Assembly (NCBI GenBank): GCA_052035095.1
Contig: JBPOHW010000007.1
Span: 65,705 to 129,704, forward strand
Length of the DNA: 64,000 bases
Direction of reading: 5' to 3'
Origin: Candidatus Moraniibacteriota bacterium
GTDB lineage: Bacteria > Patescibacteriota > Minisyncoccia > Moranbacterales > UBA1568
Shown: piece by piece, positions 8,785 through 63,613 of the stretch
Layout of the letters: each line of letters starts with the position of its first letter
Numbering within the stretch: the stretch's first letter is position 1
The notes under the pieces: model-generated
The model's input: only the letters and a program-made list of their open reading frames with translations
The model's database searches: none
What the model was told of the DNA's origin: nothing
Translations under genes and position numbers: made by a program

Positions 8785-9876
8785 TTACGATCCCAGCTCC
8801 ACGGGAATTTCCTCGATACCGATCTCTTTCATATCCGCATCAACTTGCTTCGCGAAACTCGAAAGAGCGCTAAAAATACCCTGCATCTTTGAAAGAACAA
8901 CGACATTGGCGAGCGGATCCGTATCGGACGATTCCAGTTCTTCCGGAAGCGTCGAAGCATATTGGAAGAGTTGTATCGCTTTTTTGTGCGAATCAAGCAT
9001 ATTCTCCGGAACCTCAATCGCGCCCAATTCAAGGAGCGCTCGTTCACCCTTCTCAATTAAATCATCAAAGTACTGAGCATCTCCACTTTCAATCGAAGTC
9101 ATAATACCGCCCATCATATCTTCCACGAGCGCCTCCAGATCTTCTGGCTCAGTTATTGCCCCCGGCATATGGCTCGCCAAAACATACACCACTTTTGTCA
9201 CATACTCCAGCGTATCTTCTTTGATTTTTGATGCGCGCTCTTCTTTTGAGAGATCATCATACGCCTGCTTCTTTATCAAAATATCTTCATCATCAATTTC
9301 GGGAAGATCCACGGCGCCAACGTTTCTCGCACTGAGAAGTTCTTCAAGATTTTTCTGAATATCCTGCAAGGAAAGCGAAACATCCGCACCTTCTTCGGAA
9401 GACTGTTTGAGAATTTCCGCAATTTGCTCGGAAACTTGCTCGGTCAAATTATCTGTTTCCGCGTCATCTACTCCGCCAGCACCCTCCAAAGATGATGCTG
9501 CTTCAGAAAGGGCAACCTTGTCCGTCGAACCCACATGGCCACTGACATCCCCTTCGGAACCTTCAAGCGAAACTCGATCCCCCGGAGCCGAACGAAGCGG
9601 ATCATATCCGCTCCGCACCTCAGCTCCATCTCCATACCCATCACCATCGGTATCGTATTTCTGAGAATCGGTTCCATACAGCCTCTCTTCATCATCCGTC
9701 AGTCCATCCTGATCGACATCTTGAAAAATGTTTTTCCCCGAAAAGTTTTCCGCCGCAATTGAAAAAAAACCAAGCCCAGCAAGCATCAAAAAGAAAAAAA
9801 CAAGAACAGAAGTCCGAACCCTTCCCGCGTCGATCGTTCGAGAAAAAAACTTCTTCATACAAAAATCATTCCACAA
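8785..9876 (-). CDS. acidic membrane-anchored/secreted hypothetical protein with Asp-rich calcium-binding-like repeats
   Basis: N-terminal TM (VLVFFFLMLAGLGFF), DxDxDG-type motifs (DVDQDGLTDDEE, DTDGDGYGDG); likely true start MKKFF at 9858. Confidence 0.45.
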   Translation of the reverse strand: MWNDFCMKKFFSRTIDAGRVRTSVLVFFFLMLAGLGFFSIAAENFSGKNIFQDVDQDGLTDDEERLYGTDSQKYDTDGDGYGDGAEVRSGYDPLRSAPGDRVSLEGSEGDVSGHVGSTDKVALSEAASSLEGAGGVDDAETDNLTEQVSEQIAEILKQSSEEGADVSLSLQDIQKNLEELLSARNVGAVDLPEIDDEDILIKKQAYDDLSKEERASKIKEDTLEYVTKVVYVLASHMPGAITEPEDLEALVEDMMGGIMTSIESGDAQYFDDLIEKGERALLELGAIEVPENMLDSHKKAIQLFQYASTLPEELESSDTDPLANVVVLSKMQGIFSALSSFAKQVDADMKEIGIEEIPVELGS

Positions 9877-10611
9877 AAAACAATAGTTGCATTATACCAC
9901 ATTTTTTTTAAACGCAAGCATCTAAAAATTTCATTGGCAGGACTTCCTCACTTTGATGCAGTTCAAGGAAAAACCGAGCACCGGAACGAGGTGTATGCTG
10001 TGATACTCCGAATGAGGAACGGAGGTTTTGACGAAGAAATGCGCAAAGTGAGGAAGTCCTAATTGGAAGATAACAAAGGGAACGCGGGGAATTAGAGATC
10101 CTTAACACAAAGAAAACTCAGAAAACAAGCTGCGTAAAAAATAGGCTCGACAGATACATGTCCCGCGAGCACCTCAGAATTTCTTCACCTCAACGCAGTT
10201 TCATCAACTCAAACACTCTTAATTTGAATAAGAGAAAGTACCATTGAATAAATTAAACTCGTTTGAAAAATAATTTCTTCCTTGTACATCCATACCAGCA
10301 CACACCAATACTGCTTCACTTCAACTCTAATTAAATTAGAGCATCAAACTTTTTAGTTTCTCTGAAAATAATCCAAACTTCCTATTAAGTTCGAAATCAT
10401 TGCAAGGAGCGACACCTGTCCATATTGCCAGCTTATGAACAATGTCGTACTGCAAATAGAATGTCAGCTTAAGGAGCACTGACAAGAAGCATTTACTCAT
10501 TACTGGACTGAAAATCAAAACGAGCCTATAAATTTCCAAATAAAATCCGGCACATTTTTTCAAAAAAATATTTATACATAAAAAATGAAAAGTGCTTCGA
10601 TACAGCTAAAT

Positions 10612-12282
10612 TGTTTCACGTGAAACAATTTAAATAAAAAATCAGCAAAAACAAACGTAGCGACTCCCCTCACAAAGAAGAAAATAAACAGCATCACACG
10701 AACACGGGAAATTTTCAGCTACATCTGCAAAGAATCGCTTAGCCTCATTACGCCAAGTAGCCTGCAGTTCCATGTGGAACATTTTTATTACCGCCATTTC
10801 CACGTGGAACGTGTAAACAAGAAAAAAATAAAATAATTTCTAAAAATTAGAAATATCAATGCGCGCGAGGTATTGTAGGCTAAAAAAAAATTGTTCCACG
10901 TGAAATAAGTCAAGAACCGCCAAGACAATATGTTGAGCAAGGCCACAATCAAAAGGAAAGAAATTCCATCCTTCCTTATTTTTCATACCACTCTAAATAT
11001 AATATACTCCAAAATGTTCCACGTGGAGCATACTATTTAAAAAATTTTAAATTTTAGTAAAATTTGTTCCACATGAAACACTTAATTTAAAACAGCAAAG
11101 AAAAAGTCTCAATAGGGTGCTCTCCCTATAAACCACCCTCATCATCCTCACACGCAGAGACGCGCAGCATCCACACAAAAAGAATTTTTGACTACCAAAA
11201 AAGTACGGCTACTTGTAATAAATCAATATGCCCTACAAGTTAGCGTCAGTTCCACGCAGAACAATAAAATATCCCCGGAAAAAACTTAACTTGTTCCACG
11301 TGGAAAAATATTCTTCAAATACATGTTACTCGTGGAACACGTGTGTAAATTTCTCTAATTACTTAAAAACTTAAAAAGCATACCCTCCTTACTCTCTTAA
11401 AAACTATATACCGCGCACTATAAAACCGGACGAACAAATTCGACTCTTCGGCTTTCTTGGGAAGTTTTTAATAAAGTTAAAAGTATCGTTTCATAGTTTT
11501 TGTGGTATAAACTGACCGACCAAAAAACAGAAAAAGATAGGATAGGGAAAAATTTCTAAACCTTTCAATAAAAGGACTAAGTTTTATATCCCTTTCCACG
11601 TGGAACACGACATAGGCTCTGCATTCTATAGCAAAAAACATTAAAAAATTCCCACGTGGAACAATTGTTGTAGAGGGCATCAGTATAAAAATCGCTTCAG
11701 CTAACCTAAAAAATCCCAAGAAAGAATCGTCTTTCTTGAAAAAACCTTTGAGCAAGCACCCTCAACCACAAGAAATGCTTCACGTGGAACTTTTCTAAAT
11801 AAAGACAAACAATAAAAATGATCGGAAACGAAAATATAGGGGACATCTTTGCTTTGGTGCAATTTAAGGAGAACACAAAAAGCGCGATAAATGGCATTTC
11901 AAAAGCATCAAGCACTGTAACGGCGAATCATGCCAAAAGACCCTGCTTCAAAAAATGAGGTGCTCCTGTTCCACGTGGAAAATGATTTTCTCTACAGTGT
12001 TCCACGTGGAATAGTACTCGCTATATCTCCTTGGTTTTATCAAATGTTCTACGTGAAACATATGGAATATGCGGACAGGGAGGAACACCAAAAGCATCAG
12101 TACTTCTACCAAAGGCAGGTACCCGCTTAAAGGGTACGTTATCACCAGTAAAAAATACATTAAAAAAAGAAAAAACAACCCCGGGAGAGGTCAATTTGGA
12201 ATCAGCAATGTTCCACAAGGAACAATACCTAAAACCATTTTGGGGATTGTACACTCTCCCAAAAAATGTTCCACGTGAAAAT
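10612..12282. repeat. array of >=15 parS-like 16-bp palindromes (TGTTnCACGTGnAACA) in an AT-rich, ORF-free island
   Basis: sites at 10612 (perfect TGTTTCACGTGAAACA), 10766, 10796, 10892, 11015, 11064, 11292, 11592, 11648, 11776, 11967, 11998, 12045, 12209, 12267, plus degenerate half-sites at 11333 and 12435. Confidence 0.8.
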
Positions 12283-12569
12283 TTCAAAAATTTTTTATTT
12301 CCATTCCCACTTCGAGCACTTGTAGGACGCATCTCTCGCACAAAGGGCTGAGAGCATTTATCAATGAACTGTCCCTTTCCCGAAAAGTGAGAAAGAACAT
12401 TCCGGATTTACTCTATTTTTGTTCTACAATTTCGTTCCACAATGGGGATTATAGCAACATCATAGTCTATTTCTCCATTTAAATATGGCACTTTCCAGCA
12501 ATATTATAGTTTGACGATCTTGTGAAACATGGTACGATACCCAAAAAGTCCACTCTTTTGTTGAAAGCT

Positions 12570-12578
12570 TGTGGATAA
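12570..12578. promoter_or_regulatory. perfect DnaA-box 9-mer TGTGGATAA
   Basis: exact match to consensus TTATCCACA (reverse orientation), located between parS array and tRNA-Ala. Confidence 0.3.
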
Positions 12579-12588
12579 GTCTAAAAAA

Positions 12589-12661
12589 GGGCCGTTAGCT
12601 CATTTGGTAGAGCACTTCCATGGCATGGAAGGGGTGAGGAGTTCGAATCTCCTACGGTCCA
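12589..12661 (+). tRNA. tRNA-Ala (anticodon GGC)
   Basis: acceptor GGGCCGT with G3:U70 Ala identity pair, anticodon loop ATGGCAT, T loop AGTTCGAATCT. Confidence 0.8.
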
Positions 12662-12669
12662 CTTTTTTC

Positions 12670-12741
12670 GCCCCTGTAGTTCAATGGATAGAACAGATCC
12701 GTCCTAAGGATGAGATAGAGGTTCGATTCCTCTCGGGGGCA
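12670..12741 (+). tRNA. tRNA-Arg (anticodon CCU)
   Basis: acceptor GCCCCTG/CGGGGGC, anticodon loop GTCCTAA, T loop GGTTCGATTCC; 8 nt after tRNA-Ala. Confidence 0.75.
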
Positions 12742-12829
12742 CCGCAAAGACGAAAATCCACAAGACAAGGAACACTTGATACTCTGAAAAGAAGTTGCTA
12801 TGATGCAACTTCTTTTCAGGGAAAAAATT

Positions 12830-13186
12830 ATGTCATCTTTACGACTCGAAAAGATAAATAGCCTCATCCGAGAAGAGCTCGGAAAACTTTTCTTAACTGA
12901 AACTAGCCTCAAAGGAGGTGTCTTTGTAACCATTGCGAAAGTGCGTGTCACACCTGACATACGAAATGCCTTCGTTTCCATCAGTGTATTTCCGGAACAC
13001 GAAACCGAATACACTCTGAAATCACTTCAAAAAGAACTTTCTAAAATTCAACAGCACCTCAATCTGCGTCTCTCCATGCGGCCGCTCCCGCGCCTCATTC
13101 TCGAAAGCGACGAGACTGAACAACAGGCGCAAGCCGTTGAGGAAGCAATCTCTGTTCTCAAAAAAGAACGCGAACCCAGACTATGA
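12830..13186 (+). CDS. rbfA: ribosome-binding factor A
   Basis: about 118 aa from MSSLRLEKINSLIREELG..; RbfA-like KH fold signature; ORF-track start at 12800 is probably an upstream extension. Confidence 0.7.
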   Translation: MSSLRLEKINSLIREELGKLFLTETSLKGGVFVTIAKVRVTPDIRNAFVSISVFPEHETEYTLKSLQKELSKIQQHLNLRLSMRPLPRLILESDETEQQAQAVEEAISVLKKEREPRL

Positions 13187-14151
13187 AACCGTTTACCGCC
13201 GAATTTCGAACGCTTCTCTACATTATTCGAAAATCACCCTCTTTTCTCCTTTTCGCGCACACGCGTCCGGACGCGGATACTGTCGGAGCAACACTGGCAC
13301 TTGCAGCCTTCCTAAAGGAAGAGGGGCGAGAGGTCGCCATCGCTTGTTTTGACCCGTTTCCGCCAAACCTTAACACCCTCTTTTCGGACACGAACGAGAC
13401 ATTCCTTCATCCAGATCAGCTCAATCTCGATCATTATGAAACCATAATCGCTTGCGACTCGGCAGACCGAGGATTTGATCGGATCGCCTCACGGCTCAAC
13501 AAAAAACAAACAACCGTCATACTTGATCATCACCCGGATATCGCAGTCTCAAGCGATCTCCTGATACTTGATTCGGGCGCTTCATCCACATGTGAAATTC
13601 TGCACAATTTCTTTGAAAAATCGGGTATCGCCATAACCAAACAGATGGCAACCGCGCTTCTTACGGGTATAATCTTTGATACCGGAAACTTCCAACACAT
13701 CTGCACCACACCACGCGTCATGGAAGTAGCGAGCGATCTCGCAAAGAAAGGCGCTCCTCTCGGGAAAATCGTCGACGCCATCTTTACCAACAAGAGCATA
13801 CCGGCGCTCCGACTCTGGGGAAAAGCTTTCGAACGCTCCGTTTTCAATGAAAAAAACGGGATGCTCCTCACAGTCATTACCGCAAAGGACGTCGAGGAAT
13901 GCAAAGCATCGATAGAAGATATCTATAATGTTACTTCAATCTTGAGCACCGTCCCTGAAGCAAAGTTTGCCATGGTCATTTCCGAGCGCGATCATGAGAC
14001 GGTACGAGCCAGCTTGCGTTCTATGGAGAATCACAACATCGATGTCTCCGCGATCGCTCATCAATTTGGCGGGGGCGGACACCGGCTCGCGAGCGGTTTT
14101 GAAATTCCCGGGGAACTGACAAAAACAGAGACCGGCTGGGTCGTGATATAA
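13183..14151 (+). CDS. nrnA: DHH-family phosphoesterase (NrnA-like oligoribonuclease/pAp phosphatase)
   Basis: DHH motifs RPDADTVG and ILDHHPD; rbfA-nrnA adjacency is common. Confidence 0.7.
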   Translation: MKPFTAEFRTLLYIIRKSPSFLLFAHTRPDADTVGATLALAAFLKEEGREVAIACFDPFPPNLNTLFSDTNETFLHPDQLNLDHYETIIACDSADRGFDRIASRLNKKQTTVILDHHPDIAVSSDLLILDSGASSTCEILHNFFEKSGIAITKQMATALLTGIIFDTGNFQHICTTPRVMEVASDLAKKGAPLGKIVDAIFTNKSIPALRLWGKAFERSVFNEKNGMLLTVITAKDVEECKASIEDIYNVTSILSTVPEAKFAMVISERDHETVRASLRSMENHNIDVSAIAHQFGGGGHRLASGFEIPGELTKTETGWVVI

Positions 14152-15155: not shown

Positions 15156-15692
15156 TTATTGCACCACCTCGGCGAGGAGATTTCTCCGACCGAAAGCGAA
15201 CGCTTGTTTTTTAGTTTCCACGTATATATCGAAGTGATTGCCCTTTATGGCGCCACCGCGGTCTTCACAGGTGTACACCCCATATCCCTCAATCGCAATT
15301 TTCACTCCAAAGGGATACATCGGGGGACAGGCAAGCGTTCGATTTTCCGCTACTTTCACTCCTGACGCCGTAATACCGTCAGACTTCCCGCATTCATCCG
15401 CCGCCGCCGTATAGGCAGAAGCGTTGATGACAAATTTTTCTTCAGGAAGAGCTTTCCACAAATGCGCCTGTTTCAGCCTCCACCGCGCAAGCGATTGCTC
15501 CCGCATATCGGAAACTGATACATCTTTTTTCATCTCGAGAGTTGATTGTTCGAGAACATCGCCCCAGGTCACTAATTTTGTTTCATTTTGACCAACTTCT
15601 GTTTTGGTATCGGTATCAATCTCCGCCCGCGCCACCCCCGAAAAGCCGAGGAAAAGAAGCACAAGGAGGATCAGGGTACCAAAATACCGCAT
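15156..15692 (-). CDS. secreted 3D-domain protein (MltA-like fold, cell-wall associated)
   Basis: signal peptide; C-terminal 3D-domain signature ..TASGVKV..RTLACP..FGVKIAIEGYGVYTCEDRGGAIKGNHFDIY. Confidence 0.65.
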   Translation of the reverse strand: MRYFGTLILLVLLFLGFSGVARAEIDTDTKTEVGQNETKLVTWGDVLEQSTLEMKKDVSVSDMREQSLARWRLKQAHLWKALPEEKFVINASAYTAAADECGKSDGITASGVKVAENRTLACPPMYPFGVKIAIEGYGVYTCEDRGGAIKGNHFDIYVETKKQAFAFGRRNLLAEVVQ

Positions 15693-15992
15693 AGAATATC
15701 CTCAAGAATTAACCCGGATTTTCTAAGAACAAGCCTCCAAAAAGCCACATTTCCGGTGCCTCGCCCTTTCGGACTCGACTTGCCATACTAGCATAGAATA
15801 CTCAAAATGTCAATGAATCATAACGAAAAAAATAGATATTTTTGCCTTTATAGAGCCATATTTCTACACTCAAACCGCAAAAATACGCCATCTTTTGAAA
15901 GAAAGTTAGCCTATTCAAGTCAAACCACTCAAAAAGAAAACCCCCGCCAAGCTACGACGAGGGAACAGACGAAAAAATAGGGGGGTATATAA

Positions 15993-25259: not shown

Positions 25260-26355
25260 TTCTAGAATTTAATGCCCCTTTTTCTTCTTTCACTTTCCGG
25301 CAACCACTTCCGCAAGCACTTCATTCGGCGTCTTGTATCCGAGACACTTCCTCGGACGATTATTCAACCGTTCCTGAATCTCAAATATCTCCTCATCCGT
25401 CATTGAATCAAACGCACACTTTCTTGGCAAATACTCTCGAATGAGTCCGTTCAGATTTTCCACCCCTCCCTTTTGCCATGAAGCGTACGTATCGCAGAAG
25501 TAGGAAGGAAGATTCAACATCCGTTTTGTTTCTTCATGGAGCACATTCTCGGTGCCATTGTCCCTTGTCATACTTTTGCGAAGAGTCTCCGGTATCTTGG
25601 ATAAATGCCGTTGTATCGCTCGTTCACTCTCATTCGCCGTTTTGTTTTTTGCTTTGGTCAAACGGCAGAGTCGCATCTTCCGTTCGTTCTGCACCGAGAG
25701 TATCGACTCCTGTTGTGAAAAGATCATCGAATCCGTTTCCCAATCTCCGTATCGTTCCCGTTCCCCGATAATCTTGGGTCGCTCCTGAATTGGAACACGG
25801 CTTGGAATGAGGGTTTTCTTTGGTTTCCTGCCAAACCGACGAGTACGAACTTTCTGTTTCCTCCGGAGATATTTGAAGAGTCCCCCCATACGACCGGACC
25901 CGGTATAGATGTACTGATAAATGGTTTCAGCACAGACCGTGCCATCCTTTTCATTCAAGGAATGTTCCCGATCCCGTACCCGCATTCTCCCCGCAATTTG
26001 TTCTGGCGAATGTCCTTCTTCAAGGGAGGTTTCTACAAACTTTTTCAGCTTTCGATGTTTTTCTTTTTCCAATTTTCTCGTATTTGTTTTCTTCGCGTTT
26101 CGATCAGCTATTCCTTGAGCGGAGCGGGCGGTGTAGGGAAGATGCTCGCCGGAGTTTCTTCGAATCTCTCGTTTGATCACCGAGAGATCTCGCTTCAACT
26201 TTTCCGCAATCCAGGTTTTCTTTTTCTTCATGCGTACATACATCTCTATCCGTTCCCGTTCGGGGAATGTTATTCGTTGAATGGGCATACTTTTTCGGTT
26301 GATATGGGTTAAAAACCATAGTATCCGAAAAAGGGGCAATGGGGATAGAATTCAG
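25260..26355 (-). mobile_element. IS30-family insertion sequence (about 1.1 kb) with imperfect terminal inverted repeats ending ..TGCCCCTTTTTC
   Basis: single transposase ORF; both ends carry ..(a)tgcccctttttc in inverted orientation (25264-25290 and 26321-26352). Confidence 0.7.
25290..26339 (-). CDS. IS30-family DDE transposase
   Basis: 349 aa, N-terminal HTH, C-terminal integrase-core/DDE region (..WETDSMIF..DNGTENV..). Confidence 0.8.
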   Translation of the reverse strand: MPLFRILWFLTHINRKSMPIQRITFPERERIEMYVRMKKKKTWIAEKLKRDLSVIKREIRRNSGEHLPYTARSAQGIADRNAKKTNTRKLEKEKHRKLKKFVETSLEEGHSPEQIAGRMRVRDREHSLNEKDGTVCAETIYQYIYTGSGRMGGLFKYLRRKQKVRTRRFGRKPKKTLIPSRVPIQERPKIIGERERYGDWETDSMIFSQQESILSVQNERKMRLCRLTKAKNKTANESERAIQRHLSKIPETLRKSMTRDNGTENVLHEETKRMLNLPSYFCDTYASWQKGGVENLNGLIREYLPRKCAFDSMTDEEIFEIQERLNNRPRKCLGYKTPNEVLAEVVAGK

Positions 26356-42379: not shown

Positions 42380-42802
42380 TCGCTCAACTTCGATGTTTCT
42401 CAAAAGCCGCCACTTGGCGGTTTTTGTTTTTTTTAAAAACACTCCTTCCTCCCCATCCTTTCAGTTTTCCTGTTTCATTTTGTTCACATCCTGTGGATAA
42501 CCCGGTATTTTCCCGCGCGAAACTCTTGTATTCACCTGCGGGAAACCCATAAGAAATTCTGCATAACTCCACCCCACCTCCCCACAGACACACACGTCAC
42601 CGAGAATCCCAAATCTATCTTTAAGCATCACCCCTCAGAAAATCCTTTCTTAAAACAGTATTCCTCTCTTTTCAACTTTTCCACCGGACTAATAGTAATA
42701 ATATTTATATTTTAAAAAATATATTCAATACCATAGAGAGAGGGTGAAGAATGAAGAACCCACCTTACGCAGTTACTGAAATAAGAGCTAAAAACCTAAC
42801 CC

Positions 42803-42947
42803 GTCATACCCGCGAAGGCGGGTATCCAGGTTCCATTCGTCTTCAGTAAATATATTACAAGATTTTGTTCGTTGGGTGATTATATTCAGCAGGTGGTGAC
42901 TACCTGCCTGCCGGTAGGCATGGGCTTCCCGCCTTCGCGAGAATGAC
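42803..42947. repeat. MITE-like element, family B, copy 1 (about 145 bp; terminal inverted repeats GTCAT(A/T)CCCGCGAAGGCGGG(T/A)ATCC; internal CTGCC..GGCAG palindrome)
   Basis: second copy at 46828-46978; read directly. Confidence 0.7.
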
Positions 42948-42982
42948 GAAAAGAAAGACGGTGTTTAAGATGAGTAAATTTC

Positions 42983-45007
42983 TTGACGTGTACTTTTTGT
43001 GGTATACTATTTTCAGAAAAATGTTTTTGTCTTTCGTGTGTGAATGAGCGTTCCAAAATAAAAAGATCGTTTCTCTTTCGATTGAGTCTTTTCTTTAAGA
43101 ACCACCCCGTTCTGCTCTTTGTGACGCTCTCGGGGTGTTTTTTGTTGCTGCCGTATGCATCTTACGCTGGAATATGGGATACTGTTTCTCAACCAATTGT
43201 AACGGGAGCGAAGTATTTAGTATATGCTTTTTATTGGTTTTTCTCTCTTTTTGTAAATTTAGCGTCAGCGCTTTTTGTATGGGCGATTGACACGAAAACG
43301 TTTTCGGATCTCATGAATAACGCGGCTATATATACCGTATGGCTTACGGTGCGGGATTTTTGTAATATTTTCTTTATTCTCGTTCTTCTCTTTTCCGCTT
43401 TTGCGACCATCTTTCAGCTTGAGAGGTATGAATACAAGAAAACGATTCCCATGCTCATTCTCATGGCGCTTCTCGTGAATTTTAGCTTCCCGATATCGCG
43501 CTTCGTGATTGATCTTGCGAATGTTCCGATGTATTTCTTTGCACAGAATACGGTCGGGGAAAGTGGGAATATTAGTAGTCTCTCGAGTGGTCTTTTGGGC
43601 GCGTCAAATATACGTGGCGTGATACTTCCCAATTCGCAATCGCCCGATAAAGATATTACTGATTACGATTTTGTGCATTTGCTTGTGGCGGCTACATGTA
43701 TGTTTCTTTTTGGAATTTCGTTTTTTGTGCTGGCGCTTCTTATGTTGATTCGCATGATTGCATTGGTGATATTGGTGATGTTTTCTCCGATTGGATTTGT
43801 GGGAATGATTACGCCGGCACTCCATAAGTTTGCCCATGATTGGTGGGACAAACTCTTTAAATGGGCATTCTACGGGCCGATAGCGGTGATGCTTGTTTTG
43901 GTGGCGCTCGTCGTTATGAAGGCGGCCGGATCAGTGAGTACTACCATGAAGCCGCTCGCTGGTGACAGTGTGAGTAATGACTTTCTTTCTTCCGCCCTTT
44001 TCCTTGCTATTCCCATTGTCCTCTTCTGGATCGCTATCACGCAGGCGGAGAAGTATAGCAATGATATGTCCGGCTTGGGGATAAAGTGGGGGTCGAATAT
44101 AGGGCGAAAGATGGGGGGATGGATGCGACAAGGAACATGGGGTGCAACCAAATGGACGGCAAAAGCCCCATTTAAAGGTGTTGATAATCTTTCGGGGAAT
44201 ACAATTTCCGGGACAGCGCTTGGAATACGGGAGGCATGGAGAAATAGGCAGTCGGCATGGTGGGGCGGAAGTGATATTGATAAGAGAAAGAAGCAGGTTC
44301 AGGATAGCGTTTCTTCTGCATTGAAGAGGAAAGGGACAAGTACACAGGAAGTTCAAAAGAAAGTTTCTGAGCACGAGAAAGAGCATACAACGGAAACAGA
44401 GCTACGAAGACTTGTTGACCAAAACAAAGACGTTGCCGCGGCTATGGTTCTTGCGAAACAGGGGAAGCTTACGAGTGAGGAATTTACAAAAGTTCGGGCA
44501 ACCTTGGATGCAAGTGATCCGAAGAGTGAGCAGGTTATTAATCTTCTTGAAGGAAAGGTGAAGGAGAAACGGTTGGATCTTGTTATGAATTACAAAATGG
44601 GTACAAATGAGGTGAAAGATGAAATAGCAAAGAAGCGAGTTGCTAATCCAGCCTTGAGTGCGGATGATGCTCGTGATGAGGTTTACAAAGAGGTTGTTAG
44701 GAAGGAAATGGCGAAAATAAATCCCTCAAAATGGAGGGAGCAGAACCTTGAAGAGATGTTTAGTCTTGGGAAAGATGCAAGTGGAAGCGAAAGGCAATAT
44801 TCGGTTATTAGGGATGTGCATGGAAATGTGACTGATATTGCAGAGGGTGGAGTTATTATTAACACGAAAGAATCTCAAGAGTTGAAAGCGAGAATTTCAG
44901 GTGCACAGGAAGCATTTAATCGTCATTCATCAAAAAATAAAGATAAAATAATTGACGATATAAGTGGTGATAACTTCGATGCTGGAAGAAAGACGGGTAT
45001 TTGGTAG
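42983..45007 (+). CDS. VirB6/TrbL-like polytopic membrane protein with long charged C-terminal domain
   Basis: N-terminal about 390 aa with 6-7 TM segments typical of VirB6/TrbL; hydrophilic K/E-rich C-terminal 280 aa; clustered with VirB3/VirB4 homologues. Confidence 0.5.
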   Translation: MTCTFCGILFSEKCFCLSCVNERSKIKRSFLFRLSLFFKNHPVLLFVTLSGCFLLLPYASYAGIWDTVSQPIVTGAKYLVYAFYWFFSLFVNLASALFVWAIDTKTFSDLMNNAAIYTVWLTVRDFCNIFFILVLLFSAFATIFQLERYEYKKTIPMLILMALLVNFSFPISRFVIDLANVPMYFFAQNTVGESGNISSLSSGLLGASNIRGVILPNSQSPDKDITDYDFVHLLVAATCMFLFGISFFVLALLMLIRMIALVILVMFSPIGFVGMITPALHKFAHDWWDKLFKWAFYGPIAVMLVLVALVVMKAAGSVSTTMKPLAGDSVSNDFLSSALFLAIPIVLFWIAITQAEKYSNDMSGLGIKWGSNIGRKMGGWMRQGTWGATKWTAKAPFKGVDNLSGNTISGTALGIREAWRNRQSAWWGGSDIDKRKKQVQDSVSSALKRKGTSTQEVQKKVSEHEKEHTTETELRRLVDQNKDVAAAMVLAKQGKLTSEEFTKVRATLDASDPKSEQVINLLEGKVKEKRLDLVMNYKMGTNEVKDEIAKKRVANPALSADDARDEVYKEVVRKEMAKINPSKWREQNLEEMFSLGKDASGSERQYSVIRDVHGNVTDIAEGGVIINTKESQELKARISGAQEAFNRHSSKNKDKIIDDISGDNFDAGRKTGIW

Positions 45008-45040
45008 GAATTAAGTTTTTTTCGTGTAAATTTCTTATCT

Positions 45041-46333
45041 ATGATATCTTCCGGTACCATGAATAGTCAGTTCATAAATAGATCGGTAACCCCTGTTTTG
45101 GTTTGGACTGAAAAAAATCCGGATGAGGAAACTCGAGAGCAAGTGATTGCGAATCATGAGCGATTTCGAATGCTTCCTCCGGAAGCGAAGTATAAGCTCG
45201 GATTTCAGTATACTCCCGAGATTATCAAAAAAATTGGGGAAGACTTCAGTTTGGATCCGCTGAAAATGGCGAGTATTGCTCGTGCGGTACGGAATTTCTA
45301 TTTTGGCGATCTTCCAAAAGAGAAAATTGAAGGATTCTTAATGGAAGAAATGGAAATATCTTCGGAACAAGCTCAAAAAATAGCCTTGATTGTTGATCAA
45401 AAAATCATCAGTGCGCCGATTCCCAAAGATGTTTCTGAACAGACAGTAGAAATTCCCCTTCTCGACGCCCTCTCAAAGTATCAGCGGTTGTCGGAGCAGG
45501 CGGTGACGGAGGATAGAATTGTGGTGAAGGGAGAGGGTCAGCCGGTACGGGGGTCGATTCGCAATTGGCTCCGGCACTATCGGGACGTGGTGGGGATTCG
45601 GAAGCACTCCGCGATGGAACGGGGACAGTTTTTGTTCCAGGGGGAGAATACCAAGCGACTCTCCGCGCCGGATCGGGAAAAGCTCTCACTTCTCTTTCGT
45701 TCGCTCGATGAGAATATGCCGATTTCAATCGATGTCGAGCGACAGGAGGTGATATTCCCAGCATTTGAAGAAAAGTCGAACGCGAATCAAGCGCCTCTCG
45801 AGGAGAAAGTGACGCCGACGCTTGGCACCTCATTTCGTCCGATCGAAAAGTTCCCCGCCTCTTCCACTCCCATAAAGAAGGCGCTCGAGTGGAAGACAGA
45901 GAAAACAGCGATACCGCCGCTTTTTGGGAATGTTCCCGCGCCACCACGACCCGAGATTACGTCATCGAAATCGGTCGGCGTTTCTGCTCCGGTATACGCG
46001 ATTCCCCCTATTCCTGTGTCGCCGAGCGGAGATGCTCGCGCGGAGGGAGGTAAGAGTGGAGGAATGCCTGCGGCGCAAGAAGGAATGTCGGTCTCGTCGC
46101 CGTTTTCCGCGCCGGGAAATATGAGTTTTAGTTCAAGTCACGTGCTTCCCCACGAGAAGGCAGCTCTTCCTGCGGAGCCGCCGCAAGAGGGAGTATCAAG
46201 CGAAGGACATCCTCCTTCAAGGGGTCCCGAGGCAATCAGTGTCATTAAGCCTCGTGGCGATCAGTTTGGCTTTCGCGGGAAGTCGTCGGGAGATGACTTC
46301 GATGCTCCTCGTGTGGTAAACTTACGGGGTTAG
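45041..46333 (+). CDS. hypothetical protein with Pro-rich low-complexity C-terminus
   Basis: 430 aa, no recognisable motif. Confidence 0.4.
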   Translation: MISSGTMNSQFINRSVTPVLVWTEKNPDEETREQVIANHERFRMLPPEAKYKLGFQYTPEIIKKIGEDFSLDPLKMASIARAVRNFYFGDLPKEKIEGFLMEEMEISSEQAQKIALIVDQKIISAPIPKDVSEQTVEIPLLDALSKYQRLSEQAVTEDRIVVKGEGQPVRGSIRNWLRHYRDVVGIRKHSAMERGQFLFQGENTKRLSAPDREKLSLLFRSLDENMPISIDVERQEVIFPAFEEKSNANQAPLEEKVTPTLGTSFRPIEKFPASSTPIKKALEWKTEKTAIPPLFGNVPAPPRPEITSSKSVGVSAPVYAIPPIPVSPSGDARAEGGKSGGMPAAQEGMSVSSPFSAPGNMSFSSSHVLPHEKAALPAEPPQEGVSSEGHPPSRGPEAISVIKPRGDQFGFRGKSSGDDFDAPRVVNLRG

Positions 46334-46379
46334 AAAAACTGACAACGTACAACGAACAACAGGAATCCTTTGTTTTATT

Positions 46380-46823
46380 GTGGTTGTTTGTTGCCAGTTG
46401 ATTGTTGTCTGTATTTTTCCTATGCTCTTCAATGTTCCGCAATTCATCGATGTGGAGGATAAGATCGCGGGACCGCTTACTGTGAAGCAGGTGTTGTGGC
46501 TTATCGGGATGGGGGCGGTGCTGTTTATCGTATGGACTTTTTTTGATACGCCAACGTTTTTCGTCCTTTCCGTTCCTATTATCCTCATTTTCGCGCTGTA
46601 TGCCTTCTATCGACCGTACAATCAGTCTATGCTTTCCTTTACCATTCACGGGGTGATGTTTTTTTTTCGACCCAAGCTCTATACATGGGATCGACCGGGA
46701 GTAATGAAACGACCGGATCCGAAACCGGTGGAAAATAAACCGATATCGGAATCCCCTCGACCGCTTTCCTTTGAAGAAATACAAGCATTGGCGAAAGTGG
46801 TGGATAGAGGTGGGAAGCGATAG
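46380..46823 (+). CDS. PrgI/VirB3-like small two-TM protein of type IV secretion systems
   Basis: 147 aa; N-terminal ..FIDVEDKIAGPLTVKQVLWLIGMGAVLFIV.. resembles PrgI family; positioned immediately upstream of VirB4. Confidence 0.5.
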   Translation: MVVCCQLIVVCIFPMLFNVPQFIDVEDKIAGPLTVKQVLWLIGMGAVLFIVWTFFDTPTFFVLSVPIILIFALYAFYRPYNQSMLSFTIHGVMFFFRPKLYTWDRPGVMKRPDPKPVENKPISESPRPLSFEEIQALAKVVDRGGKR

Positions 46824-46827
46824 CACT

Positions 46828-46978
46828 GTCATTCCCGCGAAGGCGGGAATCCCTGCCTTCCGGCAGGCAGGCAGGTGTCACAATGCCCAATGTAACATCT
46901 TTACAAATGAAGTCTGTAAACATTTTCTGTAAGCTGGTGGAGCCTGGTTCCCTCCCGCTGAGGCGGGACGGGGATGAC
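46828..46978. repeat. MITE-like element, family B, copy 2, filling the virB3-like/virB4 intergenic gap
   Basis: GTCATTCCCGCGAAGGCGGGAATCC at 46828 and inverted partner ending 46978. Confidence 0.7.
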
Positions 46979-46980
46979 GA

Positions 46981-47697
46981 TTGGATGAATTCTTTTTATC
47001 TATGGAAACCCTGAATCCTCAAAAATCCGTGTCGAAAGATTCGAATTCGAGCACTCAGCGCTACGTAAATGTAGAAGAGGTGCGCGATGGCGTTATCGTG
47101 CTCAAAAACGGCGCGCTTCGTTCGGTGCTTCTGGTGTCGTCGCTCAACTTCGATCTCAAGTCCGCCGAGGAACAGGACGCGATCATTTTGCAGTACCAAA
47201 ATTTTCTCAATTCGCTCGACTTTCCCGTGCAGGTGGTCATTTCTTCGCGCCGATTCGATATTCGCCCGTATATCGAGCTCCTCAAGGATAAAGAAAATCA
47301 CCAGCGAAATGAACTCCTTCGGCTTCAAATATCGGAGTATCAGAACTTTATCAAGAATCTCGCCGAGGTATCGAATATTATGTCGAAGCTTTTCTATCTC
47401 GTGATACCGTTTTCGCCCGTCGAGGACAAAGAAAAAGGCCTCTTTCACAGTTTGACGACGCTCTTTAATCCGTCGGGGGCGGTTTTGGAACGGCGGGAAT
47501 TTTTCGAAACCTACAAAAATCAGCTCTGGCAGAGGGTGGACCACGTGAGTTTCGCGCTCTCCCAAACGGGAGTGCGAGTCGCGCCGCTCAATACCGAAGA
47601 GCTCATCGAACTCCTCTATAATTCCTACAACCCTTCACTTTTTACGACACGTCTCACCAAAAACATCGAAGCGATTGATTTGGAGATAGAACGATGA
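46981..47697 (+). CDS. VirB4/TrbE N-terminal domain protein (separate ORF)
   Basis: ..VNVEEVRDGVIVLKNGALRSVLLVSSLNFDLKSAEEQDAIILQYQNFLNSLD.. matches CagE/TrbE/VirB N-terminal domain. Confidence 0.55.
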   Translation: MDEFFLSMETLNPQKSVSKDSNSSTQRYVNVEEVRDGVIVLKNGALRSVLLVSSLNFDLKSAEEQDAIILQYQNFLNSLDFPVQVVISSRRFDIRPYIELLKDKENHQRNELLRLQISEYQNFIKNLAEVSNIMSKLFYLVIPFSPVEDKEKGLFHSLTTLFNPSGAVLERREFFETYKNQLWQRVDHVSFALSQTGVRVAPLNTEELIELLYNSYNPSLFTTRLTKNIEAIDLEIER

Positions 47698-47708
47698 GGG
47701 AATGACGG

Positions 47709-49571
47709 TTGTGGTTTGTGGTAGTATTCTGTGGTTGTTGTCAATACCATATGCGTGTTCCATTTCTCGCTCCTTCAATGGGCGAACAAGATGAAATTTT
47801 ACAGAGTGAAATGCTCTACCAACGAGGCGTCGCGCGCGTTCGTGATTTGATCGCGCCCTCCGCTATCAAGGTGAGTGCAAATTCACTGCAGGCGGGGGAG
47901 ACGGTTACGCGGACACATTTTATCATCGCGTATCCGCGTTATCTCAATACCAATTGGTTCGCGCCGGTCGTGAATCTCGACTTTCCTATGGATGTCGCGA
48001 TGTTTATCCACCCGGTCGATACGCGGGATATTTTGAAGAGTCTCCTCAAATCTGCGACGCGCGTCGAGTCATCCATTCAGATGGAGGCCGAGGCGGGAAA
48101 GGTGCGCAGTCCCATTCTGGAAACCGCGCTTCAGGATATCAATGAGCTTCGCGACAAACTTCAACAGGGAACGGAAAAGTTTTTTCGCTTCGGCATCTAT
48201 ATCGCGCTCTACGCCTCGTCGATCGAGGAATTGAATCGTATGAGCCGGTCAATCGAATCGCTCCTTGAAGCGCAACTTGTCTACGTGAAGCCGGCGGTGA
48301 TGCGGATGGAGCAAGCATTCACCTCGACGCGGCCGATTGCCATGGATGAGCTTGATGTCGCCAATAATCTCAACACCGCGCCGCTCTCGACAACCTTTCC
48401 CTTTGTTTCCGCCGATCTCTCGTCTAATGACGGCATCCTCTACGGGATCAATCGCCACAACAACAGCCTCATCCTCTTCGATCGCTTCAAGCTGGAGAAC
48501 GCTAATATGGTGATTTTCGCGAAATCGGGAGCGGGCAAGAGTTATTTCGTGAAGCTCGAAATTTTGCGGTCGATGATGTTTGGTACGAGCGTGATCGTGA
48601 TTGATCCGGAGAATGAATACAAGCACCTTTCAGAAACCGTGGGGGGCTCGTTCATTCATATGAGTCTCAATTCTCCGTTTCGTATCAATCCCTTCGATCT
48701 CCCGAAGAAGCGCGATGATCAAGAGGACTTTGAGGGACTTTTGCGAAGCAATATCGCCACGTTGATCGGACTGCTTCATCTGATGCTCGGGAGCGTGACG
48801 CCGGAAGAGGACTCTATCCTCGATCAGGCGCTCCGCGAAACGTATGCCGTGCGGGATATTACGGGAAGAACCGACCTTGCGACGCTCACGCCAAGCTCCT
48901 TTCCCACGATGACCGATCTCTACGAGGTGTTGCGGAATATGGAGGGGACGGAATCGCTTGCCGCGCGGCTTGAGAAGTATACGCAGGGGATTTTTTCGGG
49001 ATTTTTGAATCACGCGAGCAATATTTCGGTTCAGAACCAAATGGTGGTGTTCAATATTCGCGACCTCGAAGAAGAACTCCGTCCGATCGCTATGTATCTC
49101 ATCCTGCACCTTGTGTGGAATGAAATGCGTTCCGAAATGAAACGCCGCCTTGTTGTGGTGGATGAGGCGTGGATTATGATGCAAAACGACGATGCGGCGA
49201 GCTTTCTTTTCGGTATCGCGAAGCGCGCGCGGAAATATTACTGTGGACTTACTACGATTACGCAGGACATCAGTGATTTTATGGGATCGCGCTACGGCAA
49301 GCCCATCGTGACCAACTCTTCGCTCCAGCTCCTTTTGCGTCAATCGGTTTCCTCAATCGACGTGGTGACGGAGACGTTCTATCTCACGGATCACGAGAAA
49401 TTCCTCCTTCTGGAGAGCGCGGTCGGCGAGGGAATTTTCTTTGCCGGGTCAAAACACGTCGCGATCAAAGTGGTCGCTTCTTACAGTGAAGATCAAATCA
49501 TCACTTCAAATCCAGAACAATTGGTCGAGATCGAAGCCGCGAAAAAGGAATTTGACGAACAGGGAATGTGA
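47709..49571 (+). CDS. VirB4/TraC-like type IV secretion ATPase (ATPase domain)
   Basis: Walker A VIFAKSGAGKSY, IDPENEY, Walker B/DEAW motif LVVVDEAWIMM; in different frame from preceding N-domain ORF. Confidence 0.7.
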   Translation: MWFVVVFCGCCQYHMRVPFLAPSMGEQDEILQSEMLYQRGVARVRDLIAPSAIKVSANSLQAGETVTRTHFIIAYPRYLNTNWFAPVVNLDFPMDVAMFIHPVDTRDILKSLLKSATRVESSIQMEAEAGKVRSPILETALQDINELRDKLQQGTEKFFRFGIYIALYASSIEELNRMSRSIESLLEAQLVYVKPAVMRMEQAFTSTRPIAMDELDVANNLNTAPLSTTFPFVSADLSSNDGILYGINRHNNSLILFDRFKLENANMVIFAKSGAGKSYFVKLEILRSMMFGTSVIVIDPENEYKHLSETVGGSFIHMSLNSPFRINPFDLPKKRDDQEDFEGLLRSNIATLIGLLHLMLGSVTPEEDSILDQALRETYAVRDITGRTDLATLTPSSFPTMTDLYEVLRNMEGTESLAARLEKYTQGIFSGFLNHASNISVQNQMVVFNIRDLEEELRPIAMYLILHLVWNEMRSEMKRRLVVVDEAWIMMQNDDAASFLFGIAKRARKYYCGLTTITQDISDFMGSRYGKPIVTNSSLQLLLRQSVSSIDVVTETFYLTDHEKFLLLESAVGEGIFFAGSKHVAIKVVASYSEDQIITSNPEQLVEIEAAKKEFDEQGM

Positions 49572-49629
49572 GGAGGAATAGGGAAGAGGAAATGGGATCG
49601 GTTACTTCATATATTACCTTTGATTTTGT

Positions 49630-50388
49630 ATGGCAATTGCGCAACCGATTACCAAGGAACAGGATATACGCGATCAAAAGGAGCGCGAAAAAAAAGAGCA
49701 AGCATTTTTGAAGCAAGAAAAAAATTCGATGCCGACGGCGAATGACGCGCGATATGATCGTCCGGCGGCAAACGACGCGAATTTTGACGAATCGGAAAGA
49801 GAACGACTTCAACAAGAGGCGAATATGCTTCGGAATGCCCAACGGCCGGCGAGAATCCTTCAAGAAGAAGCTGAGATTTCCGAAATGGAAGAAGGAATGG
49901 GGAGTGGAAACGGAGATATGAAAAGAAAGACGGAATCGGTGAAGCTCTCATCGTATTCGGCGCCCTTGATAGTCGCAGTTTTCAAGGATCTTATGGATTA
50001 TACAGTGGTGCTCGCGCTTCCCGGCGTTGGCACGGTCCTCAGTTTTTGCGCGAATATCTTGATACTCCTTCTCCTCTTCTTCCCGAAGCGCCGCTACAAG
50101 ATCGCTTCGAATGCGCGGATTGCCATTATCGATGCCTTTATCTTGATCGGGCTGGTTCCGCTTGAGGGATTGATGTTTCCCTTTAATCTTCTTCCCTTTA
50201 CGATTGCGGCGGTTGGTATGATCTACTCCGTCGACAAAAAATTTGTCGCCAAACGAAACGCGAAAACATTCGATAAAAAAGAAATGAAGGGGAAGCTGTC
50301 AGCCGTGCTTCGCCAGGTCTATGCGGATCGAGCGGTACCAATGAAAGACAAGAGCGGGGTTCGAGAACGAATGCGCGAAGCGTTTTGA
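49630..50388 (+). CDS. hypothetical membrane protein (charged N-terminus, 3-4 TM C-terminus)
   Basis: 252 aa; no known motif. Confidence 0.4.
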   Translation: MAIAQPITKEQDIRDQKEREKKEQAFLKQEKNSMPTANDARYDRPAANDANFDESERERLQQEANMLRNAQRPARILQEEAEISEMEEGMGSGNGDMKRKTESVKLSSYSAPLIVAVFKDLMDYTVVLALPGVGTVLSFCANILILLLLFFPKRRYKIASNARIAIIDAFILIGLVPLEGLMFPFNLLPFTIAAVGMIYSVDKKFVAKRNAKTFDKKEMKGKLSAVLRQVYADRAVPMKDKSGVRERMREAF

Positions 50389-50413
50389 TTTCCTCGCTCT
50401 TGTTTCTCAGTTA

Positions 50414-51115
50414 TTGAATACTATGTCTCAATATTCAACAACTATCCGTATGCTTCTTACCGACCGTCGATTTCTTGCGGCGCATATGGTGGCGTTCGCG
50501 GGAATGGCCTTGGTTGCGTTCTTTCCTGGAGCGGAAACTATTCCAGCAATGCTCATGCTTCTTCTTGCGGGCTACGGTCTTTTGCCGGCGATATTTATTC
50601 ACTTTGTTCTGAAGGAATCGATTGCCTCGTACGGATTTCATTGGGGGAGGGGGAGATTCTTTCCGACTCTCGGACTTTTGATTTTGATGATTACGATAGC
50701 GCTCGGCGCGGTTTGGTCGTTTCTTTCCTTTACGGACGCGGGGCTTCGATATGTTGACGGAACGAATATCGCGTTGCTTCGCGGGAGCTTTTCGGCATTT
50801 TTGATTTTTTCCGCGCTGTCGGTACCGGTTCTTTTTTTGACGGAAGCGTTCTTTCGGGGATTTCTTCTCGGGATATGGCGTCGGTATTTCGGGATATGGA
50901 GCGTGGTTTTATCGGTTGTCGCGACACTTTTTCTCTCATGGATTCGAGTGAGCGATGTATCGAGTCACGCTTTTTTCGGAGAAATGACCATCCTCGCCAT
51001 TGGTTCGATATGCGCCTCGATCATTGCTTTTTTCTCGGGATCGTACTTGCTCTCCTTTTGTTTTTTCTTTTTTTTTGATACACTGTCAACAGTGTTTGCG
51101 ATGATACTTTCATGA
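50414..51115 (+). CDS. CPBP (CAAX protease / Abi) family intramembrane metalloprotease-like protein
   Basis: multi-TM; motif LTEAFFRGFLLG (EExxxR-like) and downstream His-containing motifs. Confidence 0.45.
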   Translation: MNTMSQYSTTIRMLLTDRRFLAAHMVAFAGMALVAFFPGAETIPAMLMLLLAGYGLLPAIFIHFVLKESIASYGFHWGRGRFFPTLGLLILMITIALGAVWSFLSFTDAGLRYVDGTNIALLRGSFSAFLIFSALSVPVLFLTEAFFRGFLLGIWRRYFGIWSVVLSVVATLFLSWIRVSDVSSHAFFGEMTILAIGSICASIIAFFSGSYLLSFCFFFFFDTLSTVFAMILS

Positions 51116-54294: not shown

Positions 54295-54322
54295 CGAGTA
54301 TTTTAGTATCTAGCAATGTCGT

Positions 54323-55606: not shown

Positions 55607-55612
55607 TTTTTT

Positions 55613-62852: not shown

Positions 62853-63329
62853 CTATAAATCGCTTTTCGGTTTCACGATGATTTTTCGGTTTTCGCCCAT
62901 ACCCGAACTTTCGGTGACGACCGTTTCGGACTCGGCGAGCGCGAGGTGGACACACTTGCGTTCAAAAGGCGTCATGGGACGAAGGAAAACCGCTCCCTTG
63001 TCTCGCGCCGCTTTCGTTTCGGCGTCTTTGGCTTCCGCGGAAAGCGCCCGTGCTTTTTCTGTCCAGTAGTGATTGACGTCGATTGAAAAATTCGCCCACC
63101 CGTCACAGGCTCGTCGAGCTATGAGGCGAGCAAGCGCTTGGAGCGCCTCTAAATTGAGACCGCGCTGGCCAATCAAAAGATTCGATCCTTCGGTAACGTG
63201 TATATGACACACGAAATCTCCCTGGATGGGGAGAACCGGCGATTCCACCGTGACTTCGGCGGGAATCGTCATTTTTTCAAGAAGCGCGCGCACGATACCG
63301 GCGACGACTTCGGCTTTGTCATGATCCAT
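62853..63329 (-). CDS. jag: Jag/KhpB-like KH + R3H domain RNA-binding protein
   Basis: 158 aa; KH-like and C-terminal R3H segment (..FLRPMTPFERKCVHLALAE..); located next to yidC as in rnpA-yidD-yidC-jag operons. Confidence 0.7.
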   Translation of the reverse strand: MDHDKAEVVAGIVRALLEKMTIPAEVTVESPVLPIQGDFVCHIHVTEGSNLLIGQRGLNLEALQALARLIARRACDGWANFSIDVNHYWTEKARALSAEAKDAETKAARDKGAVFLRPMTPFERKCVHLALAESETVVTESSGMGENRKIIVKPKSDL

Positions 63330-63613
63330 ACGGTTTTTTCATTGGGTTAGAGGTCGGCGGGGTGCGCCGAAATCCTCCCCTCCTTCTTCCGAGAATATCA
63401 CCGTTTCGCCCCAATGAAAAGAGCCCGACGCGTTTTGCCCCGGGCTCTTTCGAGTGTGAAAAATTTTTTGAAATAAAATGGGAGTTGCCAAGATTGCAAA
63501 AATGAATTTTTCTCACACGTTTCGCGAATGCTGATCCGACGTTTCGTCCCGCCAAGGCGGGATTGCAATCTTGGCGTGCGTTGAAAATAAACTTTTGTTT
63601 TTGTTGGCTCTAT

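Follow-up and report, generated by a model that had tools for sequence, protein, structure and literature searches.

The 64-kb stretch of Candidatus Moraniibacteriota DNA considered here (contig JBPOHW010000007.1; 'the window' denotes this whole stretch) contains, between a gene for a TSP3-repeat protein ending at position 9876 and a tRNA-Ala gene starting at 12589, an AT-rich island with a dense array of sequences resembling parS, the palindromic centromere site bound by the partition protein ParB. The island is 2,712 bp long and has a G+C content of 36.5 %, against 49.8 % for the window. When the whole window was scanned with TGTTYCACGTGRAACA, allowing up to 4 mismatches, 17 parS-like 16-mers with 3 or fewer mismatches were found, all within 1,671 bp of the island (Table 1). 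One is perfect, 7 have a single mismatch, 6 have 2 and 3 have 3. Outside the array the window is without any site of 3 or fewer mismatches, the remaining matches all having 4. Shuffling of the island gives an expectation of 0.02 sites against the 17 present; likewise, a strict-consensus search returned 11 matches against 0.25 expected from shuffles. The array matches tGTTNCACGTGNAACa, the 16-bp inverted repeat by which chromosomal parS is recognised, and at least one perfect 7-nt arm is kept in 15 of the 17 sites, most of which pair a perfect arm with an imperfect one. Half-site 7-mers occur at 7.4 per kb inside the island and at 0.15 per kb outside it.

In Pseudomonas aeruginosa and other species ParB binds GTTCCAC/GTTTCAC arms, with affinity falling as mismatches accumulate (PMC5961200), and both TGTTTCACGTGAAACA and the GTTCCAC arm are experimentally established ParB targets (PMC5961200; PMC7022226). 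An earlier note, made from the letters of this DNA alone, had described a dense, irregularly spaced parS array with a perfect canonical copy at 10612–10627. The perfect copy is present, 8 of the 17 sites have at most one mismatch, and the spacing is indeed irregular, ranging from 30 to 268 bp. The symmetric variant TGTTCCACGTGGAACA, which the note took for the commonest form, has no perfect copy in the window and is merely approximated by the sites. Sequence flanking the sites is not conserved. Tandem Repeats Finder detected no array in the island, and there is no repeat family longer than the 16-mer and no period.

The AT-rich and non-coding character given to the island also holds, as no supported open reading frame (ORF) is present. 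The accompanying statement that no ORF exceeds 100 codons was not quite exact: two mutually overlapping frames of 106 codons lie at 12021–12351, although neither matches Pfam. None of nine island ORFs, these two and seven others, had a meaningful Pfam match. Rfam searches of the island, at gathering thresholds and at E≤1, returned the flanking tRNAs only.

Table 1. Features of the island, its flanks and the right-hand part of the window (positions in the window; mismatches relative to the scan motif)
Feature	Position	Strand	Evidence
AT-rich island without supported gene	9877–12588		G+C content, ORF, Pfam, Rfam; synteny with L010 and others
parS array, 17 sites	10612–12282		Motif scan
Site 1, TGTTTCACGTGAAACA, perfect canonical palindrome	10612–10627		Scan; aligns with sites in L004, L160, L162
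Site 2, AGTTCCATGTGGAACA, 2 mismatches	10766–10781		Scan and four-genome alignment
Site 3, ATTTCCACGTGGAACG, 3 mismatches	10796–10811		Scan
Site 4, TGTTCCACGTGAAATA, 1 mismatch	10892–10907		Scan; common to all four aligned subclade genomes
Site 5, TGTTCCACGTGGAGCA, 1 mismatch	11015–11030		Scan and alignment
Site 6, TGTTCCACATGAAACA, 1 mismatch	11065–11080		Scan and alignment
Site 7, AGTTCCACGCAGAACA, 3 mismatches	11248–11263		Scan; 98 %-identical strain L157 reads AGTTCCACGTAGAACA
Site 8, TGTTCCACGTGGAAAA, 1 mismatch	11292–11307		Scan and alignment
Site 9, TGTTACTCGTGGAACA, 2 mismatches	11324–11339		Scan and alignment
Site 10, CTTTCCACGTGGAACA, 2 mismatches	11592–11607		Scan and alignment
Site 11, ATTCCCACGTGGAACA, 3 mismatches	11648–11663		Scan and alignment
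Site 12, TGCTTCACGTGGAACT, 2 mismatches	11776–11791		Scan and alignment
Site 13, TGTTCCACGTGGAAAA, 1 mismatch	11967–11982		Scan and alignment
Site 14, TGTTCCACGTGGAATA, 1 mismatch	11998–12013		Scan and alignment
Site 15, TGTTCTACGTGAAACA, 1 mismatch	12045–12060		Scan and alignment
Site 16, TGTTCCACAAGGAACA, 2 mismatches	12209–12224		Scan
Site 17, TGTTCCACGTGAAAAT, 2 mismatches	12267–12282		Scan and alignment
Isolated half-site GTTCCAC	12434–12440		Half-site scan
Isolated half-site GTGAAAC	12522–12528		Half-site scan
TSP3-repeat protein gene, conserved left neighbour	8785–9876	-	Pfam PF18884; syntenic in L004, L157, L160, L162, L010
Promoter-like TTGACG-16-TACGAT upstream of tRNA genes	12511–12538	+	Promoter scan; equivalents in relatives
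tRNA-Ala(GGC) and tRNA-Arg(CCT), right neighbours in all relatives	12589–12743	+	tRNA annotation, synteny
rbfA and nrnA-like DHH phosphoesterase gene	12800–14151	+	Pfam; syntenic anchors for finding relatives
GC/GC3 skew switch (cumulative minimum), candidate replication origin	42380–42982		Skew; ~30 kb from array
jag (R3H) and yidC C-terminus	62853–64000	-	Pfam, tblastn; synteny with CP064994.1

The array sits between two divergent transcription units. Promoter and terminator scans of the island were at background level except for the promoter of the tRNA genes, equivalents of which (TTGACG-N17-TATGAT) lie upstream of tRNA-Ala in the related loci L005, L012, L019 and L021 (L numbers denote individual loci used for comparison). 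The left, parS-free part of the island contains a perfect 17-bp inverted repeat (AGGACTTCCTCACTTTG / CAAAGTGAGGAAGTCCT) enclosing 88 nt at 9939–10060. The segment folds at −55.4 kcal/mol (z = −6.75; minus strand z = −6.8). It matches no Rfam family and is found neither a second time in the window nor in any of the loci compared. Possibly it is a small structured element, of RNA or DNA, close to where the TSP3-repeat gene starts.

The locus in related genomes

Relatives were found through the nrnA-like protein and comprise Candidatus Moranbacteria/Moraniibacteriota and Paceibacteria metagenome-assembled genomes (MAGs), all belonging to the Candidate Phyla Radiation (CPR). The earlier note had called for a comparison with related genomes, and the array is conserved in every relative with sequence at the position: of 20 species-level relatives examined, 16 have DNA upstream of rbfA, and all 16 carry an array at the syntenic position, with 5–10 parS each at 2 or fewer mismatches. 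The order of the locus, TSP3-repeat gene, array, tRNA-Ala(GGC)-tRNA-Arg-rbfA-nrnA, is conserved. Arrays of 17–19 sites at 3 or fewer mismatches are also present in L157, a 98 %-identical strain, and in two closed genomes of the same subclade (CP064974.1, 1.11 Mb; CP064989.1, 1.09 Mb). All 17 window sites are found in L157, with four substitutions falling in three of the sites. By sequence comparison, the sites are conserved among related genomes beyond the neutral expectation. For the window's own species beyond the window, identical proteins were found solely on short Logan contigs.

The earlier note would have given up its reading if the 16-mer were a generic repeat found genome-wide or the region a misassembled repeat collapse. 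Neither was observed in the DNA compared. The 16-mer is confined to the array in the 64 kb and in clade DNA, of which ~440 kb outside the arrays contained zero sites with 2 or fewer mismatches, and in L157, an independent assembly, all 17 sites recur in unchanged order. An array of short palindromes in AT-rich DNA could in principle be a dispersed repeat of the repetitive extragenic palindrome or miniature inverted-repeat transposable element kind, or the product of faulty assembly. However, only the 16-mer recurs here, with no longer unit, direct-repeat flanks or tandem period, and comparable arrays are present in the two closed genomes; the probability of such an origin is vanishingly small.

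Three states of the locus are apparent. In the coding state, seen in twelve of the relatives from the genome scan, 5–7 nearly all perfect sites lie in an intact ORF of 430–470 amino acids on the minus strand, exactly at the position of the window's island (for example L010 7776–9086, L008 and L015). The Pfam threshold for Wzy_C (O-antigen ligase) was passed by 2 of the 3 members tested, and the motifs FPFSWR, FNEYMD, YGTFPHPN, GxGxGTYR and DHYxWDIYQG are conserved in the protein. On these two grounds the host ORF is a real gene, predicted to encode a Wzy_C-like membrane protein. The parS sites are held at five orthologous loop positions of this protein, where they encode the peptides FHVE/K (frame 1), V(P/S)R(G/E)T (frame 2) and CSTWN (frame 0). 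At one orthologous position the same DNA site is translated in different frames between genomes, which is direct evidence, at the level of sequence, for selection that targets the DNA motif and not the peptide.

Metagenome loci also have the sites embedded in this gene (for example L143 10711–12939 and L096 214–1812), and metagenome members reach 11–12 sites per gene through in-frame duplication of a two-site module of ~45 amino acids; L143 and L119 encode a 742-amino-acid version with 3–4 in-frame copies of the module (KCSTWNIKRGKM.KNLNFQQLSTTYIQTPIKYSENKQNVPRGT), each containing two parS. Among the best 120 matches of a profile search for the Wzy_C-like protein, roughly the top 40 carry 1–12 parS-encoded peptides, and 75 are without them, essentially all of these being distant Wzy_C homologues. 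More distant lineages, including a Doudnabacteria MAG, likewise have 2–8 perfect sites in a Wzy_C-like gene, which there adjoins gyrA or other neighbours. In that Doudnabacteria locus (L163, MFEU01000009.1) the Wzy_C-like gene has two perfect parS and one site with 2 mismatches, and bactofilin and DUF4446 genes are found ~4 kb away (15449–15814). In Myxococcus xanthus bactofilins position ParABS.

In the short non-coding state (L019, L021 and L022), 8–10 perfect copies of TGTTCCACGTGGAACA are packed into 0.5–0.8 kb of non-coding DNA directly upstream of tRNA-Ala. The long non-coding state comprises five genomes, the window, L157, L004, L160 and L162, with 17–20 degenerate sites, 0–1 of them perfect, spread over 2.7–3.7 kb of gene-free DNA. 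Searches of the window's island for a remnant of the host gene, by tblastn and profile hidden Markov model in all frames, gave matches driven solely by the parS-encoded peptides. The window's subclade is inferred to have a derived, non-coding form with many weak sites, the direction of change having been from coding to non-coding.

Whether the degenerate sites are maintained was assessed in four genomes of the subclade. Nucleotide identity in nrnA is 68–80 % among them, while that of the island is 45–57 % against 42–54 % in shuffled controls; being no higher than the controls, it indicates that the island spacers are saturated. In a four-way alignment, in which the motifs themselves serve as anchors, three or more genomes share the order of 15 groups of sites, seven of which are collinear in all four. 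Of the alignment columns, 56 % are invariant within shared sites, compared with 20 % outside them. In many degenerate sites of the subclade, CATGTG or CACATG replaces the central CACGTG (~8 of 17 in L162; L160 6650–8338, L162 7351–9047, and positions 10766 and 11065 of the window). This CpG-to-TpG/CpA pattern may point to decay linked to methylation, or to a reader for which the change is tolerable.

The array might thus be a decaying relic, the remains of a pseudogenised parS-carrying Wzy_C-like gene whose sites no longer serve as a centromere. The host gene of most relatives is absent here with no detectable remnant, the subclade arrays have at most one perfect site where nearly all are perfect elsewhere, and the CpG changes are many. 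However, subclade arrays hold more sites (17–20) than gene-embedded ones (5–7, at most 12), and a compact genome of ~1.1 Mb retains its gene-free DNA here in five genomes. Additionally, about 15 sites stand in order across four genomes although the spacers between them are at shuffled-control identity; neutral 16-mers would have vanished with the spacers, so the retained sites count against a relic. Collinearity, although partly circular as a measure, and the 17–20 sites kept per genome argue against neutral decay, and a relic is considered quite unlikely.

Position relative to the replication origin

Pfam annotation of ~50 ORFs identifies the window as bacterial chromosome. Its genes include rpsA, gmk, tilS, ftsH, rbfA, an nrnA-like gene, udg, purD, rplS, gyrA, rpsO and pnp, together with a comM-like gene, ksgA, pcrA, a xerC-like gene, a type IV secretion system (T4SS)-like cluster, glycan genes, jag and the end of yidC; no DnaA gene was found by the Pfam annotation of the window. 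Plus-strand GC skew, and the same skew at third codon positions (GC3), take negative values in all genes of the first 42.4 kb and positive values beyond 43 kb. An origin of the skew as a by-product of gene orientation was rejected, as the sign is kept in genes of both strands on either side of 42.7 kb; because the sign is independent of orientation, the switch is of the replication type. In the closed genome CP064994.1 yidC-jag abut rnpA-rpmH, followed by dnaA-dnaN, and dnaA is accordingly expected a few kb beyond the right-hand boundary of the window, at a distance of ~53 kb from the array. From the skew switch 30 kb away and the synteny of yidC-jag with dnaA, the array is placed within ~3–5 % of the 1.1-Mb chromosome from the origin region, in agreement with the origin-proximal location that the earlier note had proposed. 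Known parS sites typically lie within the ori domain (PMC7022226).

The earlier note had further suggested that the array might be combined with oriC, citing a perfect DnaA box. The box exists (TGTGGATAA, 12570–12578), but it is solitary. It lies between the tRNA promoter and tRNA-Ala, ~30 bp downstream of the promoter, and is partly conserved, though not outside the subclade. In the island 17 DnaA boxes with 2 or fewer mismatches were counted, against 10.8 ± 3.3 in shuffles, and they form no cluster. Boxes are not enriched at the skew switch either, where a second perfect one is located at 42492, inside the intergenic region of the switch. In favour of an island that is or contains oriC, with parS interspersed, are its AT-rich and gene-free nature, its origin-proximal place and the one perfect box at its right edge. 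Against this, neither GC nor GC3 skew changes sign across the island, the switch being 30 kb away, DnaA boxes are not enriched in it, the lone perfect box follows closely on the tRNA promoter and is not conserved outside the subclade, and most relatives have an intact protein-coding gene at the same position. As the island offers neither a DnaA-box cluster with an AT-rich unwinding element at the skew switch nor a change of skew across it, an oriC here is highly improbable.

Several observations concern the origin region itself. The skew switch coincides with the left border of the T4SS-like cluster (42983–56764), which includes a VirB4/TraG-type ATPase at 47709–49571 and a T4SS pilin at 54323–55606. 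Since the switch is more than 20 kb from the expected dnaA, dnaA may not adjoin the origin, or this segment may be the result of a rearrangement. In CP064994.1 (L028 6712–8231) dnaA is annotated as two ORFs of 302 and 204 amino acids, and on a same-species Logan contig (L029) it is one gene of 506 amino acids; the split is probably an assembly frameshift error. Of 10 independent short-read contigs with identical jag (among them L025–L027 and L151–L156; Logan, window's species), 9 end within the spacer between yidC and jag, breaking 185–206 bp upstream of jag (window ~63330–63613), which suggests a repeat or coverage problem.

Known partition loci and the predicted role of the island

The closest known counterpart is the cluster of M. 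xanthus: 22 parS (24 by another count) occupy ~3 kb of DNA that precedes parA by 4 kb and lies ~30 kb away from ori, and ParB binds this cluster in vitro (PMC3899335; PMC3778016). The two loci have in common a dense cluster of canonical 16-bp parS, 22 in ~3 kb there and 17 in 1.7 kb here, located tens of kb from ori and not at oriC. A density of this order is thus not foreign to chromosomes, as the earlier note had supposed. However, the M. xanthus cluster is only a few kb upstream of the parAB operon, whereas no parAB is present within the 64-kb window; the M. xanthus genome is 9.1 Mb against ~1.1 Mb; the window sites are mostly imperfect; and a locus of the window's type is a coding gene in sister lineages.

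With the canonical chromosomal sites (Bacillus subtilis Spo0J, P. aeruginosa parS1–4, Caulobacter, Corynebacterium glutamicum) the array shares the consensus, the GTTCCAC/GTTTCAC arms and the ori-domain location, and those sites too may lie inside genes (PMC5961200; PMC7022226). In contrast, they number 1–10 over 10 kb to several hundred kb, whereas all sites detected here fall within 1.7 kb and one ORF can contain up to 12 sites in relatives.

On plasmids, sopC and parC consist of a fixed unit repeated head to tail beside a par operon, and are read by plasmid-specific proteins. The earlier note had likened the array to them, and it does resemble plasmid arrays (F sopC, R1 parC, P1 parS) in being a set of reiterated sites in a short non-coding stretch that would nucleate one partition complex. 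The likeness ends there: the spacing is irregular, with no fixed unit or period beyond the 16-mer, no parA/parB operon (sopAB, parMR) adjoins, the motif is of the chromosomal type, and the context is chromosomal, with rpsA, ftsH, gyrA, pnp and tRNAs. Because both the fixed unit and the adjacent par operon are missing, the array is not of the sopC/parC kind.

A metagenome scan for two perfect sites 15–45 bp apart gave at least 120 loci. In 56 of the 120 listed, parA and/or parB is present, typically directly beside the pair. The window array likewise includes close pairs (30–58 bp), but most of the listed loci have 2–4 sites, next to parAB, and only 8 of the 120 reach 7 or more sites in 2 kb. 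Of these 8, four (L143, L119, L120 and L096) are CPR loci of the window type. Compact arrays were also seen in unrelated metagenome bacteria of higher G+C content: L061 (3977–4327) and L114 (6–803) have 7 parS in 0.35–0.8 kb directly upstream of parA-parB, and L046 (854–1080; G+C 74 %) fits 7 into 0.2 kb. Several phyla therefore have dense arrays. Literature searches on parS, ParB or ParABS in CPR/Patescibacteria found nothing relevant.

Pfam scans of ~58 ORFs and tblastn, with B. subtilis Spo0J and Soj sequences as queries, found no ParA or ParB in the window, as the earlier note had stated. Patterns for ParB box II and the ParA Walker motif on six-frame translations were also negative, and in none of the relatives' loci compared did a parAB lie within 10 kb of the array. 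A weak Spo0J match at ~26.3 kb was rejected as ParB; it is an IS30-type transposase. This IS30-family gene (HTH_38 and a DDE-type C-terminal region; 25290–26339, minus strand) lies between an NYN-domain gene and pnp.

With no ParB found nearby, the island could instead be a platform for another protein, either a ParB-like or other palindrome-binding regulator acting as silencer or insulator for the neighbouring TSP3-repeat gene or tRNA-rbfA operon, or the reader of a set of Noc-type sites. The location of the array between divergent units would suit such a role, and in P. aeruginosa ParB–parS complexes can repress adjacent promoters (PMC5961200). The sequence is, however, that of canonical chromosomal parS and not of a Noc or KorB site, and 17 sites over 1.7 kb far exceed what a promoter-operator needs. 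The identity of the array is also kept inside coding sequence with different neighbours (e.g. gyrA in L164 and L165). Noc-type sites are dispersed genome-wide, whereas those of the window type are confined to one locus. A non-ParB platform is accordingly very unlikely.

Given the motif, its excess over shuffled sequence, its confinement to one locus, its conserved position and order and its origin-proximal position, the island is very likely the chromosomal centromere, a parS array, of a ~1.1-Mb Candidatus Moranbacteria (CPR/Patescibacteria) genome and a predicted loading platform for ParB. As such it would be a further case of the dense chromosomal parS cluster, a kind already known. Dimers of a canonical chromosomal ParB, predicted because of the motif and its conservation, would recognise the 16-bp palindromes, close into clamps bound to cytidine triphosphate (CTP), and then slide, or spread, across the AT-rich island into flanking DNA. 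One partition complex would thereby form ~30–55 kb from the origin, to be moved by ParA and/or used for loading of structural maintenance of chromosomes (SMC) complexes. ParB binding, CTP-dependent spreading and the ParA and SMC steps are all inferred. In the window's subclade the host gene would have been lost and ~17–20 degenerate sites, mostly with one perfect arm, kept in non-coding DNA.

Several points weigh against this centromere. Neither the window nor ~0.45 Mb of related clade loci yielded a ParB or ParA, so a cognate reader has to be assumed, and the same tblastn queries do match parA and/or parB in 56 of the 120 listed unrelated metagenome loci with parS pairs. Of the 17 sites, a single one is a perfect palindrome and 9 depart from the motif by 2–3 mismatches, where other lineages keep perfect sites; individual sites in the window may therefore be weak or dead. 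The collinearity measure is partly circular because of its motif anchors. Lastly, the placement of the origin rests on skew and synteny, no DnaA-box cluster having been found.

A more far-reaching proposal is that in this CPR clade the centromere is deliberately housed in the gene of the polytopic Wzy_C-like protein, so that transertion (coupled transcription, translation and membrane insertion) would tether ParB–parS to the membrane of these ultra-small cells, and that the window's subclade lost the gene and compensated with a larger, non-coding array of many weak sites. Neither ParA nor polar anchors are seen near the locus. The proposal is unlikely; if true, it would be a new coupling of a bacterial centromere to the envelope, possibly replacing ParA or polar anchors.

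The array itself does what dense Myxococcus parS clusters already do, and the surprise for a specialist is therefore moderate; the coding-embedded centromere of the relatives is the more unusual result. The three states form a natural series for centromere strength, from 5–12 perfect sites in a gene through 8–10 perfect non-coding sites to 17–20 weak non-coding sites, and in the first of them DNA-level selection would be superimposed on coding sequence in three frames. CPR/Patescibacteria are ultra-small, mostly uncultured bacteria with reduced genomes, and their cell cycle is essentially unknown. For these organisms the locus is a concrete, conserved cis-element that would mark the segregation site of Moranbacteria, and the array could help to orient MAGs and to find the ori domain in them.

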